In this document: positions 6,454 through 49,304 of the stretch, one piece after another
Layout of the letters: every line of letters starts with the position of its first letter
Numbering within the stretch: the stretch's first letter is position 1
Origin: an uncultured Gemmatimonadota bacterium
Lineage (GTDB): Bacteria; JAAXHH01
Direction of reading: 5' to 3'
Assembly: GCA_951812955.1 (NCBI GenBank)
Contig: OX638340.1
Coordinates: forward strand, 3,744,001-3,808,000
DNA length: 64,000 nt
Translations under genes and position numbers: made by a program
Notes under the pieces: model-generated
What the model was told of the DNA's origin: nothing
What the model saw: only the letters and a program-made list of their open reading frames with translations
The model's database searches: none

Positions 6454-6470
6454 GCCATTCCTCTTCGTTT

Positions 6471-6530
6471 CAGCCCGGAATTGTTTCAACCCGGAATCGT
6501 TTCAACCCGGAATCGTTTCAGCCCGGTATA
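6471..6530. repeat. intergenic tandem repeat, ~16-bp unit (aacccggaatcgtttc) x ~3.5
   Basis: cagcccggaattgtttc / aacccggaatcgtttc / aacccggaatcgtttc / agcccggtata seen directly; lies between the GH5 start and the rdgB stop. Confidence 0.8.
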
Positions 6531-7114
6531 TCCTTTAAGTCGCCCAGTATTTCCGCGATCCGCCGTAACGCCATGGCCCGGTGACTGATCCGGTTTTTCG
6601 TCCTGGCATCCAGTTCGGCGAACGTGCTTTCATAGCCCGCGGGAACGAACAACGGATCGTAGCCGAATCCGGACTCGCCCCGGGGTTCCCGAAGTATCCG
6701 GCCCTCGCACACCCCGTCCGAGGTCCAGGTCCGTCCATCCGGCGCCACGACCGCCATGACGCACCGGAACCGGGCGGTTCGGTCGCCGTCGGCGACGCCG
6801 GCGAGGGCTTCTAGCAGACGGTGCATGTTGTCCCGGTCGCTGGCTGTCGCACCGGCGTACCGGGCCGAGTGCACGCCGGGCGCCCCGCCCAGGGCGTCCA
6901 CCTCCAGGCCCGAGTCGTCCGCCAGCGCGGTTTTACCCGTGAACCCTGCGACGGCACGCGCCTTGATGAGGGCGTTCTCCTCGAAGGTACGGCCCGATTC
7001 CTCCGGTTCGGGACAGCCGGGGAAAGACGCGGCAGTCGCGACCCGCACACCGGTCAGCAGCGCTTCGATTTCGGAGATCTTGCCCGGGTTGCGTGTGGCC
7101 AGGACGATGGTCAT
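6518..7114 (-). CDS. rdgB: non-canonical purine NTP pyrophosphatase (dITP/XTP), RdgB/HAM1 family
   Basis: 198 aa; N-terminal LATRNPGK motif, FGYDP motif; classic rph-rdgB adjacency. Confidence 0.9.
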   Translation of the reverse strand: MTIVLATRNPGKISEIEALLTGVRVATAASFPGCPEPEESGRTFEENALIKARAVAGFTGKTALADDSGLEVDALGGAPGVHSARYAGATASDRDNMHRLLEALAGVADGDRTARFRCVMAVVAPDGRTWTSDGVCEGRILREPRGESGFGYDPLFVPAGYESTFAELDARTKNRISHRAMALRRIAEILGDLKDIPG

Positions 7115-16211: not shown

Positions 16212-16523
16212 ATGAGAATAGATCAGTTTCTGAAACGGTCCCGCATCATCAAACAACGGGATGCCGCCAAGAAGGCCTGCGACCGGGGCATGATTACCAT
16301 CTCCGGAAGATCCGCGAAACCCGGCCACCAGGTCGCGGCGAAGGACATCGTCGTCGTGGAGTGGCCCGACAGACGGCTGGAGTTCGAAGTGTTGGACGTC
16401 CCGGACGGGAACGTGTCGAAAGAAAAAGCACTGTCCCTGTACCACGTGCTCAGCGATGAACAATCCAGCGATGAACGACCCAGCGATGAACAATCCAGCG
16501 ATGAACGTCCCAGCGATGAATGA
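16212..16523 (+). CDS. S4-domain RNA-binding protein (Hsp15/YbcJ-like) with acidic C-terminal tandem repeat
   Basis: MRIDQFLK..S4 fold signature; C-terminus SDEQSSDERP x2 encoded by a 30-bp tandem repeat. Confidence 0.7.
   Translation: MRIDQFLKRSRIIKQRDAAKKACDRGMITISGRSAKPGHQVAAKDIVVVEWPDRRLEFEVLDVPDGNVSKEKALSLYHVLSDEQSSDERPSDEQSSDERPSDE
16451..16520 (+). repeat. in-frame coding tandem repeat, 30-bp unit x 2.3
   Basis: cagcgatgaacaatccagcgatgaacgacc repeated; encodes SDEQSSDERP repeats at the C-terminus of the S4 protein. Confidence 0.85.
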
Positions 16524-16583
16524 CCTGGCGATCATTCTGCAGGGATCGAAGCACGGTGAACGCGCGCCGGGGCCCAGAGTCCG

Positions 16584-24541: not shown

Positions 24542-26191
24542 ATCCACAAACGTATCTCATTCCTGGTATTACTTGCCGTTACCCTGATCGGCACAGTCCT
24601 TGTCTCCCCTACCATCAGGCTGTGGTTTTCTTCTCCCGAATCCATCGAAAGGCTTACGCCCGATGAAAGGAAAACGCTCTACGGCCAGTCCACGGTACCC
24701 GGTATCGACCTGGCGGGCGGATATAGGCTGACCGCCGGTCTGGATGTATCCCGTTTCACGGAAAGAGGCAGGATGAGGGCGGTGGAAAGCCTGGTCGAAA
24801 ACTGGCGCTTGCGCCTCAATGCATTCGGGATTTCCGAACCGGTCATCACCGCGCGGGGAAACGACGCTTTCGATATCGTCGTTCCCGTCAGTGTGGATAC
24901 CGGGCTCGCAGCCAGAATGATTCAGGAATCCGGGGCGATCACGCTGCATCTGTTCAAAGATGGCGCGGAAGTGCAGGCCTTGAGGCAGCGTGTAGACGAT
25001 GCCGTTCGTGAACGGGACCGGGACGCAACATCCGGGACTGACGCGCAGGAGCCGGCCGGAACAGGTGGATCGGCATCGGACGGACCCGGTGGGCTCAGCG
25101 CGTTGCTTGCGCGTATTACGGTGGAGGACGGAATCGGAGACATCGCGGTCAGGGAGGACAACCTGGATGCCGTAAAGGCCATGCTGGCCGATTCCACGGT
25201 ACTGGCCAGCATACGGGCCTTCAACCTGGCAAATCCTCCCGCCGGCGCCTTCGCGTGGGCATCAGAACCGGTGGAACGCGGCGGCAGCGTGTACCATCCG
25301 CTCTATTTCATCAACCAGGACGTGGATCTTAACGCCCAGCCCGTCGCTTCGGCCGTAGTCAGCGACGCTTCGGTAACGGCGGACCGGGGCGCTTACGCGG
25401 TACGCCTTTTCCTGCAGGACGAGGGCAGGGAGAGTCTGGCCAACCTCTCCAGTGCCAACGCGGGAAACCGCCTGGCCATCAAGATGAATGGACAGGTGTA
25501 CGTGACGCTGAGTATTCAGGGCAGAATACCCGACGGACGGATAGAGGTTCCCGGCGGCGATACCCTTGAAAAGGCACGCGCCCTGGCGGCCATCCTGGAA
25601 TCCGAAGCGCCTCCCGTGGCCGTCGCGCTCCTGGATCAGGCGGGAGTGGATATGCCCTCACCGTACGGAGACGGGATCGTGGACAGCGCATTCGGCGCCG
25701 CCGTGATTGGCATTGGATTGCTCGGCGCCTTGTTCGTGATCCGGTACCGGGCAGCCGGCTTGCTATTCATTGCGGGGATCCCGTACTTTCTGATCATGAC
25801 CGGAGCGATGCTGAGGCTGTGGAACATCGCCGGAATCGCGCCGTACTTCACGCTCGCCGGCGTGGTTGGATTACTCGCCGCGTTGCTTGTTTTCACCAGC
25901 GTGCATATCTGGATATTCGAGTACCTTCGGGCGGAAATCGGAACGGAGACTAAGGTCCGCCAGGACGTCATGACTACGCTCGAGAAGATCACGCCTGTCC
26001 TGGTCTGGACCCATGTCATGCTGCTGCTCGTCTCCGTGTGCCTGGTCGTGGTAGGCACCGACAGTGTCGTCAATTTCGGTCTCGTGTTGTTTTCCGGTGC
26101 GGCCGGCAGCCTGCTGACCTCGATCCTCTGGACGAACATGCTTCTGTCCTCCCTGGTGGCGGACTGGCAGATCAGAAAGTTGAGTATATGA
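24542..26191 (+). CDS. secD: protein translocase subunit SecD (start codon non-canonical or upstream error)
   Basis: The frame is open from 24518 and encodes N-terminal TM1 (ISFLVLLAVTLIGTVLV) and the IDLAGG motif before the first ATG (24773); no ATG/GTG/TTG upstream in frame; AAGGA SD sits 9 nt before ATC 24542. Confidence 0.8.
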   Translation: MHKRISFLVLLAVTLIGTVLVSPTIRLWFSSPESIERLTPDERKTLYGQSTVPGIDLAGGYRLTAGLDVSRFTERGRMRAVESLVENWRLRLNAFGISEPVITARGNDAFDIVVPVSVDTGLAARMIQESGAITLHLFKDGAEVQALRQRVDDAVRERDRDATSGTDAQEPAGTGGSASDGPGGLSALLARITVEDGIGDIAVREDNLDAVKAMLADSTVLASIRAFNLANPPAGAFAWASEPVERGGSVYHPLYFINQDVDLNAQPVASAVVSDASVTADRGAYAVRLFLQDEGRESLANLSSANAGNRLAIKMNGQVYVTLSIQGRIPDGRIEVPGGDTLEKARALAAILESEAPPVAVALLDQAGVDMPSPYGDGIVDSAFGAAVIGIGLLGALFVIRYRAAGLLFIAGIPYFLIMTGAMLRLWNIAGIAPYFTLAGVVGLLAALLVFTSVHIWIFEYLRAEIGTETKVRQDVMTTLEKITPVLVWTHVMLLLVSVCLVVVGTDSVVNFGLVLFSGAAGSLLTSILWTNMLLSSLVADWQIRKLSI

Positions 26192-27039
26192 TGGAAAAGG
26201 GCCTCACCGCATTGTACGAAAAACTGATCGACCGCCCCGGGGTTGCCTACGCATTCGTCGTCATACTGGCCGTGTTGGGAATCGCAGCAACGGCTATGAA
26301 GAGGGAACACGCGGTCGACGAGGGCGTGGTGGCCTTGCTGCTGTCCGGCGACCTGCTCTACGGCCTGTTCGTGACCATGCTGATCGTGCTGGTCATCGTG
26401 GGCACCCGGATAGACGACCGGCCGGGTAAGAGCATCGCGGTGTCCCTGGGCGTATTGGCGGCGGGAAGCATCGTGCGTTTACTGCTCCCGTTTGCCCGAT
26501 CGATCGACTGGTTGGGAGAATGGAACGGGGTCATGCTAGGCATCATGATTATCACCCTTTACCTGGCGTTTCGCATAGGCGCCCGATTCGCCGTGACGGC
26601 GATGGGTTGCGCGCTATACGTCATGTTCGTCACGGCGGGAATCACCTTTGGACTGTTGGATAGAATTACGGTTTCGGGCATACTGGCGCTGATGGCCGTC
26701 GGAACGCTGGCGGTGGTGATGACCTTCCTGGGCTACAGTCAGGTCAGAAACCAGATAGAAACCGCGCGGCGTGACCCGGCCGGCCATTCCGTGCGTACCG
26801 GCATGTCGCGGGCCCTGCCCTTTCTGATCATGGCCGGCCTGGCCGTCCTGGTGGTCGCCGCTCCGCTGGCCATCGCCGCCGACGGTCCCCCGCGTGATTT
26901 CGGCCTCCTGCTGATGATCGGTGGTCCGGTAGGCGCCTGTGCGGCCCTGATGTCGGCGGTGCCTCTCGTATCCATGATGCAGAACGTACGGTTCGAGGTC
27001 GGGACGCCCCCCCGGCGCGGTGGACGCCGTCAGCGATAA
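26188..27039 (+). CDS. SecF-like export membrane protein, divergent with minimal periplasmic domain
   Basis: ATGATGG overlap with the secD stop; ~8 TM; C-terminal GPPRDFGLLLMIGGPVGACAALMSAVPLV resembles the SecF LRDFALALLIG..SS.F.ASPLL motif; the usual periplasmic domain and DTIVVFDRIRE motif are degenerate. Confidence 0.5.
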   Translation: MMEKGLTALYEKLIDRPGVAYAFVVILAVLGIAATAMKREHAVDEGVVALLLSGDLLYGLFVTMLIVLVIVGTRIDDRPGKSIAVSLGVLAAGSIVRLLLPFARSIDWLGEWNGVMLGIMIITLYLAFRIGARFAVTAMGCALYVMFVTAGITFGLLDRITVSGILALMAVGTLAVVMTFLGYSQVRNQIETARRDPAGHSVRTGMSRALPFLIMAGLAVLVVAAPLAIAADGPPRDFGLLLMIGGPVGACAALMSAVPLVSMMQNVRFEVGTPPRRGGRRQR

Positions 27040-27190
27040 GCGCCTGCCCAGCAGTGGTAAGTGCCCGCCGGCAACGGTGAGTGTCCTCCGGTAGCGGTAA
27101 GCGCCCGCCGGTAGCGGTAAGCGCCCGCCGGTAGCGGTAAGCGCCCGCCGGTAGTGGCAGTCTCCTGCCGGCAACGGTAAGTGCCCACCG
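27040..27190. repeat. intergenic minisatellite, 20-bp unit x 7 (core gtagcggtaagcgcccgccg)
   Basis: Seven consecutive 20-bp units (three identical central copies) between the secF-like stop and the sulfatase start. Confidence 0.9.
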
Positions 27191-27221
27191 CGGAACCATG
27201 GCGCAGGCAGCCTGGAGTACC

Positions 27222-28733
27222 ATGGCCGATCAACCCAACATCCTCCTGATCCTGTCCGACCAGATGGTTGCCGCGCTGACCGGAACCTATGGACATCCCG
27301 TCGTCCGGACCCCTAACCTGGACAGACTGGCGGCAACCGGCGTGCGCTACGATGCCGCCTACACCGCCTTTCCGCTCTGCGCGCCCGGCAGGGCCTGCCT
27401 GATGACGGGAAGGCATGCTTCGGAAATCGGCGCCTGGGACAACGGCGCACTGCTGTCTGCGGACGAACCTACCTTTGCCCACTACCTGGCTCGTGCGGGT
27501 TACGATACCGTGCTGTCGGGCAAGATGCATTTTATCGGCCCGGACCAACTGCACGGATTCAGAAAGCGGCTGACCACCGACATATATTCCTCCGATTTCG
27601 ATTGGGTAAAGCCGGAATGGATCCGCCTGAAAGAAACCAGAGGGACGGACTTCGAGCAGGTCATGAGCAACCGACCGGCCTATAACGCGGCGGGGTACAC
27701 GGGCGACGGTGTGCGGATCGACGCCTGGCACGACGCTTTGAGTTACGACGAGGAAACCCATTTCCGCGCTATTGAATACCTGCGGGCCAGGAACTCCGGC
27801 GGGGAGGACGGCCCCTTTCTGCTCTGCGCGTCCTATCACCATCCGCACGAACCGTTCTGGCCGCCCGATGCCTACTGGAAACAGTATGAAGGGGCGGACA
27901 TCGACCTGCCCGTCTTTCCTGCCGACCTGGATGATCACCATTCCATGATGGACCTGAACCTCAACGCCTATCACGGTACCGGGTGTTACGATCTGCGGAA
28001 CGAAGAGGGCCTCTACCGGCTTCGCCGCGCCTATTACGCCCTGGTGAGCTACATGGACGACAAGGTCGGTGGCCTGCTGGACGCGCTCGACGAAACCGGA
28101 CTGGCTGAAAATACGGTGGTAGTCTTCGCCAGCGATCATGGCGACATGCTGTGCGAGCGGGGCATGGTTCAGAAACGCTGTTTCTACGAATGGTCCTGCC
28201 GGGTGCCCCTCATCGTTCGCTTTCCGGATGGATGGAGGGCGGGTACGACCTTTCCCGATCCCGTGTCGCTGATCGATCTTCTGCCTACGTTCTGCGATCT
28301 CGCGGGCGTTGAGGACCGGCTTCCCCACGACGGCCAAAGTCTCGTGTCAGCGGCCGCGGACGACGGGGACCGCGTGGTGTTCGCCCAGGCGCACGAGGCC
28401 GTGGGCATGCCCTGCATCATGGCGAGGCAGGGTCGGTACAAGTACCATTACATACACGGTTTCGCCCCTCGGCTTTTTGATCTGGACAACGATCCGGACG
28501 AATGGCATAATCTCTCGGGCGAGCACGCCGAGGACGAACACCGCCAGGTGGAAGCGCGTCTGCTCGGCCGGATCCTCGACCGGTTCGACCCGGATGCCAT
28601 TGCGGAGGAAAACCTGGACAGCCTTTACCGGCGGCGCCTGATCCGGGATACCATGTCGCGGTACGGACACACGTGGAGTCATGAGCCCGGTTTAGACCAC
28701 CGGAAGGGCGCCATGAAACAGTATTTGAGCTAG
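27222..28733 (+). CDS. sulfatase (choline-sulfatase/arylsulfatase family)
   Basis: Formylglycine motif C-A-P-G-R (LCAPGRACLMTGR); metal-binding LSDQ..; no signal peptide; alternative start 27198. Confidence 0.85.
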   Translation: MADQPNILLILSDQMVAALTGTYGHPVVRTPNLDRLAATGVRYDAAYTAFPLCAPGRACLMTGRHASEIGAWDNGALLSADEPTFAHYLARAGYDTVLSGKMHFIGPDQLHGFRKRLTTDIYSSDFDWVKPEWIRLKETRGTDFEQVMSNRPAYNAAGYTGDGVRIDAWHDALSYDEETHFRAIEYLRARNSGGEDGPFLLCASYHHPHEPFWPPDAYWKQYEGADIDLPVFPADLDDHHSMMDLNLNAYHGTGCYDLRNEEGLYRLRRAYYALVSYMDDKVGGLLDALDETGLAENTVVVFASDHGDMLCERGMVQKRCFYEWSCRVPLIVRFPDGWRAGTTFPDPVSLIDLLPTFCDLAGVEDRLPHDGQSLVSAAADDGDRVVFAQAHEAVGMPCIMARQGRYKYHYIHGFAPRLFDLDNDPDEWHNLSGEHAEDEHRQVEARLLGRILDRFDPDAIAEENLDSLYRRRLIRDTMSRYGHTWSHEPGLDHRKGAMKQYLS

Positions 28734-29776: not shown

Positions 29777-29906
29777 GGCGGCGTAGAATAGCGCGGCTAT
29801 CCAGTCCAATCAATGCCGACGCAAATGGCCTCAGCAGCGCACTGGCAATGGCCGCGGCAGCGCACCGAAAATGGCCGCGGCGCCCGGTCACCAGACCCTT
29901 CGCATC

Positions 29907-43032: not shown

Positions 43033-43201
43033 AGCGGCCGCACGATCGGGAGTGCCCGTACGACCGGGAGTGCCCGTACGACTAGGAGTACCCGCGAGAT
43101 CGAGATCGGCCGCACGATCGGGAGCTGTTGAACGATACAGGCGTGCCCGCGCGATCAAGCGCGACAGCGCGATCAAGCGTGACAGCGCGATCGGGATCGA
43201 C
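43033..43201. repeat. intergenic compound tandem repeat (18-bp units: cgaYcgggagtgcccgta x3; cgcgatcaagcgYgacag x3; ggccgcacgatcggg x2)
   Basis: Directly visible; between the TIM-barrel isomerase stop and the SDR start. Confidence 0.85.
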
Positions 43202-49146: not shown

Positions 49147-49304
49147 CCGGCCGGGATGGCCTCACACCGCCCGGCCGGGATGGCCTCACACCGCCCGGTT
49201 CGCCCACCGCCCGGCTCGCCCTGCCCACCAGCCCGGTTCGCCCACCGCCCGGCTCGCCCTACCCACCAGCCCGGTTCGCCCACCGCCCGGCTCGCCCTGC
49301 CCGC
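49147..49304. repeat. intergenic compound minisatellite (24-bp unit x2, then 38-bp unit x ~2.8)
   Basis: ccggccgggatggcctcacaccgc x2; ccggttcgcccaccgcccggctcgccctgcccaccagc x3 (last truncated); between convergent hisD-like and HpcH genes. Confidence 0.9.

Follow-up and report, generated by a model that had tools for sequence, protein, structure and literature searches.

An intercistronic minisatellite derived from the secF stop region in an uncultured Gemmatimonadota bacterium

The spacer between the secF and sulfatase genes is filled by a tandem array of 20-bp units. The array is probably a locally generated VNTR driven by slippage and carried as an intercistronic passenger, most likely without a sequence-specific function. 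Its unit arose from the 3′ end of secF itself, varies in number and sequence among close relatives, and occurs nowhere else in the sequence searched. Intergenic VNTRs are an already known kind of element, and the array is a further instance that carries little weight as a single locus.

Organization of the array

The array is composed of eight 20-bp units in register at 27029–27189 on the forward strand of the window, which is the whole 64,000-nucleotide stretch of DNA analysed here. TRF delineates it at 27032–27190 with a period of 20, 7.9 copies, 76% matches, and a score of 155, and additionally detects a 60-bp higher-order period with a score of 176. The array and its immediate surroundings are sequentially composed of the following features.

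24773–26191, +: SecD gene (Pfam)
26188–27039, +: SecF-like gene, 283 aa (Pfam PF02355; translation)
27029–27048, +: unit 0, the founder copy, GTCAGCGATAAGCGCCTGCC, followed by a 1-nt slip at 27049
between the slip at 27049 and 27090, +: two diverged units (from the register layout)
27090–27149, +: three identical units GGTAGCGGTAAGCGCCCGCC, starting at 27090, 27110, and 27130 (from the register and mismatch counts)
27150–27189, +: terminal C-type unit GGTAGTGGCAGTCTCCTGCC, then a B-type unit GGCAACGGTAAGTGCCCACC (from the allele comparison)
27190–27221, +: unique 32-nt leader with the SD sequence GGAG at 27214–27217, four bases upstream of ATG 27222
27222–28733, +: sulfatase gene, 503 aa (Pfam PF00884, E=5e-49)

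Unit 0 is built from the last SecF codons (...CGT CAG CGA TAA) and the first 10 nt of the spacer, and the SecF TAA stop at 27037–27039 lies inside it. The slip at 27049 is a single extra base between unit 0 and the next unit. The first-pass annotation had described seven 20-bp units that run from the secF stop to about 30 nt before the sulfatase start and fill the spacer between the two genes. Seven units indeed follow the stop, preceded by one more that carries it, and both neighboring genes are confirmed by Pfam. The 3′ end of the array lies 32 nt upstream of the sulfatase ATG at 27222 and 8 nt upstream of an in-frame ATG at 27198.

Three unit types, A (stop-bearing), B (GGCAACGGTAAGTGCCCACC), and C (GGTAGTGGCAGTCTCCTGCC), constitute the 60-bp higher-order period. 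The units beside the identical triplet differ from GGTAGCGGTAAGCGCCCGCC by 4–6 mismatches out of 20 positions. All abut head to tail without intervening spacers, and the units of the window terminate in CCGCC/G. Most units contain a TAA, and the array is devoid of any ATG. Since 20 is not a multiple of three, the copied TAAs rotate through all frames, leaving the array without a through-ORF.

The array stands well above chance. In 100 first-order Markov simulations of the window, arrays with a period of at least 10 and a score of at least 50 appear at 0.37 per simulated window with a top score of 77. The real window contains 8 such arrays with scores up to 214. The secF–sulfatase array combines a tandem unit of 10–100 bp above chance with copy-number polymorphism at the locus, the two marks of a VNTR or minisatellite.

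Flanking genes and the sulfatase start

The array lies within a string of genes that are all on the forward strand and are separated by short spacers or overlap. Their Pfam assignments are PdxJ, SecD, SecF-like, sulfatase, GFO/IDH/MocA oxidoreductase, HSDR_N_2, and PhyH dioxygenase. The SecF of the window is identical to the database protein P0065, and its C-terminus, RRGGRRQR*, is unaltered in all relatives.

The start region of the sulfatase gene contains a duplication of its own. A 24-nt segment is repeated within 27195–27226, with ACCATGGC present at 27195 and again at 27219. The upstream in-frame ATG at 27198 belongs to this duplication, which is separate from the 20-bp array. Judged from the alleles, use of this ATG appears unlikely because it is out of frame in three of them (L015, L024, and L025). 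Independent ENA gene calls on related contigs also give a 503-aa sulfatase that begins at the downstream ATG, and the two lines of evidence together place the sulfatase start at 27222. Exact-protein database look-ups with the sulfatase returned no match with either start codon.

The sulfatase carries the CxPxR formylglycine motif in the form CAPGR. Its N-terminus opens directly with the catalytic-domain motif MADQPNILLILSDQ, and a signal peptide is not evident there. The position of the catalytic motif at the very start and the lack of an evident signal peptide suggest that the enzyme is cytoplasmic.

Related loci and the single-copy precursor

Related loci were collected from a SecF genome scan (n=12), a metagenome scan (n=2), and contig look-ups (n=11), giving 25 in all. 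The secF–sulfatase order is kept in every one that reaches far enough. The MAGs that contain them are labelled Gemmatimonadetes/Gemmatimonadota or Candidatus Latescibacterota, and one locus is from the Aplysina aerophoba sponge metagenome MKWU (PMC5649159). Because the related loci derive from sponge-associated MAGs, the organism is placed in a sponge-associated lineage.

Seven species outside the clade of the window (L003, L006, L009, L010, L011, L012, and L014) have a repeat-free secF–sulfatase spacer of 40–43 nt. The ancestral state is thus a short intercistronic spacer in a co-directional gene string, with no promoter region. Since this spacer was already 40–43 nt long and held its own SD sequence, tight translational coupling was absent. 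The array had been proposed in the first-pass annotation to occupy the place of a promoter or 5′ UTR. The promoter part of that proposal is unsupported, given the short ancestral spacer and the lack of a sigma-70-like site. A like array moreover fills the convergent spacer at 49147–49302, where promoter logic does not apply.

The origin of the unit can be traced in two of the unexpanded species. The sequence across the secF stop of L014 is ggaggCCGCCGgcagcggTAGttgcCCGCCGtgg, and the layout in L011 is the same. Both contain CCGCCG, 14 nt that include the stop, and a second CCGCCG, so that the hexamers are exactly 20 nt apart. This bracketed stop segment is, judging from its layout, the single-copy precursor of the unit and a ready substrate for slippage.

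A plausible course of events can be outlined from this precursor. Replication slippage or unequal exchange between the two CCGCCG microhomologies, 20 nt apart, would duplicate a segment comprising the last codons of SecF, the stop codon, and about 10 nt of the spacer. The stop would stay in frame in the first copy and leave SecF unchanged, and the unique leader and the SD sequence ahead of the sulfatase ATG would be left intact. For both reasons the duplication would be tolerated. Further slippage would then expand, contract, and reshuffle the array.

Other expansions of the same spacer, made of other units, are present in L004, L008, L005, and L007. In L004, CCGCCG is found at every unit border, and L008 has similar GC-rich borders. 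No conservation of the unit sequence is seen across species, as other lineages carry unrelated units or none. In an NJ tree of the flanks, the expanded alleles of the window clade group with L004, L008, and L005. The expanded L007 lies on a separate branch beside the unexpanded L009, indicating at least two independent expansions. The repeated expansion of this spacer is compatible with a mutational hot spot at CCGCCG and also, as far as the sequences go, with recurrent selection.

The local derivation of the unit bears directly on whether the array was inserted as a member of a dispersed mobile intergenic family of the MIRU, REP, or MITE type. Such a family would account for the MIRU-like intercistronic position between co-directional genes (PMC12548453). 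But the unit derives from the local 3′ end of secF and is single-copy in unexpanded relatives. The 20-mer is not found outside the spacer either in the window (up to 4 mismatches) or in the 25 related loci (up to 3 mismatches), 375 kb in total, on which ground a dispersed or mobile family is rejected. The inverted-repeat search gave only chance pairs of 8–12 nt, with no significant palindrome and no terminal inverted repeats, and the TAA in most units precludes an ORF through them. Insertion of such an element is accordingly rated as highly improbable, and local generation by slippage is preferred.

Copy-number variation in the clade of the window

Fifteen alleles with flanks that are 89–100% identical were compared within the clade of the window. 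They contain 5–9 units in differing order, and almost every lineage is distinguished by an allele of its own. The spacer lengths are 122, 143, 158, 162/163, 177, 181/182, and 202 nt. Four pairs of closely related loci illustrate the dynamics.

L001 and L013, flanks 99.5% identical: arrays exactly one unit apart, with a few substitutions in addition
L015 and L022, flanks 99.1% identical: equal unit number, rearranged
L022 and L023, from different samples, flanks 100% identical: arrays identical
L016 and L017, from different samples, flanks 100% identical: arrays identical

As read from these alleles, the array evolves far faster than point substitutions accumulate, and switching among otherwise identical genomes is not seen; array identity in the pairs with 100% identical flanks is read from consensus assemblies, which hide minority variants.

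The unit type of the triplet is present only once in L025, which at 97.5% flank identity is the closest relative of the window, indicating that the triplet is a recent expansion. In most clade alleles a C-type unit, as a rule with a B-type unit behind it, is retained near the 3′ end, and the variation lies mostly further upstream. The 3′ end is therefore the more stable end of the array. The shortest clade allele has 5 units (122 nt), with none lower among the 15. This floor might be a sign that a long spacer is selected for, or might reflect plain shared ancestry. As alleles differ at flank identities of 99.1–99.5%, the array and its sibling loci provide high-resolution strain markers for an uncultivated genus of sponge symbionts.

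Tandem repeats are prone to mis-assembly, and the array could in principle be an artefact. Homologous arrays are, however, present in at least 15 independent assemblies, including megabase-scale contigs and complete chromosomes. The contig names point to long-read (ptg/ctg) as well as short-read (SPAdes NODE) assembly, and the identical 60-bp core is shorter than the largest k-mers typical of short-read assemblers. The probability of an artefact is regarded as negligible.

A second related contig, L021 (ENA ERZ18545484 ptg009574l), comes from the same sample as L024 and carries a different 8-unit array. Gene calling splits its pdxJ, secD, and sulfatase genes into fragments. The contig could represent a degraded strain or be of low quality.

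The first-pass annotation had suggested that copy-number variation at the array could modulate sulfatase expression, as in a contingency-like locus. The variation itself is borne out by the 5–9 units of the 15 alleles, and the contingency role is unsupported by the sequence comparison. In such a role, gain or loss of units would tune sulfatase expression and produce heritable expression variants, acting through the intercistronic distance, translational coupling, mRNA stability, or Rho access. The range of unit numbers among close relatives and the lack of any clade member below five units are in keeping with it, as is the report that coupling efficiency drops as the stop–start distance grows (PMC12548453). 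But the ancestral spacer of 40–43 nt with its own SD sequence speaks against tight coupling in the first place. The unit is 20 bp long, rather than part of a short simple-sequence tract, and the spacer RNA folds no more stably than shuffled sequences. The array lies downstream of a stop codon and upstream of an intact SD sequence, neither between −35 and −10 elements nor within an ORF, and the promoter scan found none. Equivalent arrays also occupy a convergent spacer and the 3′ ends of coding regions. Finally, where flanks from different samples are 100% identical, the arrays are identical too, which is unexpected for a phase-variable locus. Contingency regulation is therefore considered unlikely, and a passenger array that is probably neutral fits the alleles better.

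Search for functional signals

A scan of 26500–27700 for sigma-70-like promoters and intrinsic terminators gave 0 sites each. An Rfam scan of the region returned best scores of 17–20 bits against gathering scores of 40–60, with no hit within the array. The MFE of the spacer RNA, compared with dinucleotide shuffles, corresponds to z = −1.0 on the + strand and +0.3 on the − strand, revealing no extra stability.

These results weigh on a structured RNA, such as an attenuator, a terminator, or an sRNA, encoded by the repeats. The region is GC-rich, and the C-type unit holds a small hairpin, GGCAG-TCTC-CTGCC, as such an element might. But the MFE is no better than that of the shuffles, neither a T-tract terminator nor an Rfam family is found, and the element is absent from sister species. 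A structured RNA is given scarcely any probability.

An array of protein-binding sites of the iteron or operator type, each unit spanning two helical turns, or a repeat-derived promoter for the sulfatase gene would be consistent with the 20-bp period, which is close to two helical turns, and with the location directly upstream of a gene. Against this, sister lineages have unrelated units or none, and 4–6 of 20 positions differ between units of one array. The unrelated unit sequences in other expanded lineages argue against sequence-specific protein binding. There is no sigma-70-like match and no adjacent replication or regulator gene. We judge both variants very unlikely.

Several further candidates were rejected. 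A CRISPR array is incompatible with units that abut without unique spacers. An iteron array is not supported, as the units are not conserved, there is no rep gene or origin, and the neighbors are SecDF, the sulfatase, and the oxidoreductase. An antisense ORF through the array was dismissed because spurious ORFs also run antisense to real genes.

The array is thus best regarded, in our interpretation, as a slippage product without sequence-specific function. It is probably present as untranslated intercistronic RNA within a secD–secF–sulfatase–oxidoreductase transcript. Its sole likely effect would be a longer spacer, of 122–202 nt instead of about 42 nt, and translation of the sulfatase would rest on its own SD sequence.

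Comparison with known repeat systems

The array most resembles generic bacterial VNTRs and, in its position, the MIRU-VNTRs of Mycobacterium tuberculosis. Intergenic VNTRs are exemplified by the intergenic tandem-repeat markers of Wolbachia, which are used in MLVA typing (PMC3287509). The secF array shares with generic intergenic VNTRs the head-to-tail units of 10–100 bp in a spacer, the variation of unit number and sequence among strains, and a presumed origin by slipped-strand mispairing. It differs from them in that its birth is readable, as the microhomology-bracketed stop segment is single-copy in sister species, and in that the density of loci in the window is unusually high. The array constitutes a clean natural case of minisatellite birth, in which a precursor with 6-nt microhomologies one period apart survives in sister species.

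MIRU-VNTRs are minisatellites located between co-directional operon genes, with a copy number that varies between strains (PMC3914561; PMC12548453). The secF array has a similar place, since secD, secF, the sulfatase gene, and the oxidoreductase gene are all on the + strand. However, MIRUs form a dispersed family with units of 40–100 bp at many loci, whereas the 20-mer of the secF array is confined to one spacer in the 375 kb searched and is locally derived. A MIRU also carries a small ORF that overlaps the flanking stop and start codons and is coupled to the downstream gene, whereas the secF array has no ORF.

Contingency loci of Haemophilus, Neisseria, and Campylobacter resemble the array in that a repeat number near a gene could in principle alter expression. 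They consist of 1–9 bp units in an ORF or between promoter hexamers and switch in clonal populations. In contrast, the secF array has 20-bp units, is placed between stop codon and SD sequence, and is the same in the consensus of contigs with identical flanks. Plasmid and chromosomal iterons are likewise tandem direct repeats of about 20 bp, but the secF array lacks the context of a replication initiator or origin, and its units are not conserved among relatives. Literature searches gave no specific report of minisatellites in sponge symbionts.

Gene-border minisatellites in the window and the lineage

The eight arrays of the window (period at least 10, score at least 50) correspond to 1.25 per 10 kb and are all located at gene borders, as defined by Pfam-supported genes and a GC3-based gene map. 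Unrelated minisatellites had already been noticed in other spacers of the window and suspected to be a wider feature. Apart from the secF–sulfatase array, the window has five intergenic arrays and two that lie in frame at the 3′ ends of genes, and spacer arrays prove to be genome- and lineage-wide. Two 50-kb stretches of E. coli K-12 contain no intergenic array.

6465–6526, −: 16 bp × 3.9, between a Ham1-family gene (6518–7114, −) and a GH5 cellulase-like gene
16451–16525: 15 bp, in frame, at the 3′ end of an S4-domain gene; 5.0 copies, against 6.0 in L002
18518–18579: 15 bp, in frame, at the 3′ end of the DNA polymerase III delta′ gene; 4.1 copies, against 5.1 in L002
29823–29881: 23 bp × 2.6, the unit including the start codon (29871) and opening codons of the HSDR_N_2 gene
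43038–43094, −: 18 bp, in the spacer between the co-directional AP_endonuc_2/xylose-isomerase-like and short-chain dehydrogenase genes
43149–43192, −: 18 bp, of a sequence other than that of 43038–43094, in the same spacer
49147–49302: 24 bp × 2.2 (100% identity), then 38 bp × 3.0 (96%), in a convergent 3′–3′ spacer

The array at 6465–6526 contains a TGA in every unit, of which the one in the first unit serves as the stop of Ham1. It ends at the RBS of the next gene, AGAGGAA followed by ATG. Its anatomy is that of a stop-codon duplication, as in the secF array. The repeat at 29823–29881 creates two out-of-frame upstream ATGs. The composite array at 49147–49302 fills the whole spacer from the hisD stop (49135) to the stop of an HpcH/HpaI aldolase gene (49304). 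The two in-frame repeats lengthen the C-terminal tails of the S4-domain protein and DNA polymerase III delta′. Arrays within ORFs have only periods divisible by three, the pattern expected from purifying selection on random tandem duplications.

The inflation of gene borders also differs between relatives. The spacer between the GFO oxidoreductase and HSDR_N_2 genes is a 4–5 nt overlap in four species, and measures 67 nt in L002, 94 nt in the window, and 239 nt in L013. The array density is 0 per 20 kb in L003, L006, and L009, and reaches 7 in L004. L001, L002, and L008 rank with L004 and the window among the repeat-rich genomes, and L010 belongs with L003, L006, and L009 to the repeat-poor ones. 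The density of gene-border minisatellites in the window points to a mutational peculiarity at the level of the lineage, and the secF array is probably one case of a lineage-wide tendency for gene-border spacers to be inflated by short tandem duplications. A stronger proposal, in which the lineage systematically inflates its gene-border spacers by copying stop and start codons, including those of ancestrally overlapping coupled pairs, with the secF array as one case, is entertained only as a doubtful extension. The inflation could stem from unusual replication or repair, for example from a polymerase prone to slippage or the loss of a repair function. Alternatively, intercistronic spacers of adjustable length could serve to set the relative expression of genes in an operon.

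Repeats are also found inside a coding region in relatives. The SecD coding region contains 24-bp and 57-bp repeats in L004 (8821–8905), L011 (8818–8892), and L012 (8752–8906), and the SecD of the window has a shorter segment (about 25012–25082) at the place of these repeats. From its sequence, the repeat segment looks like a variable coding linker.
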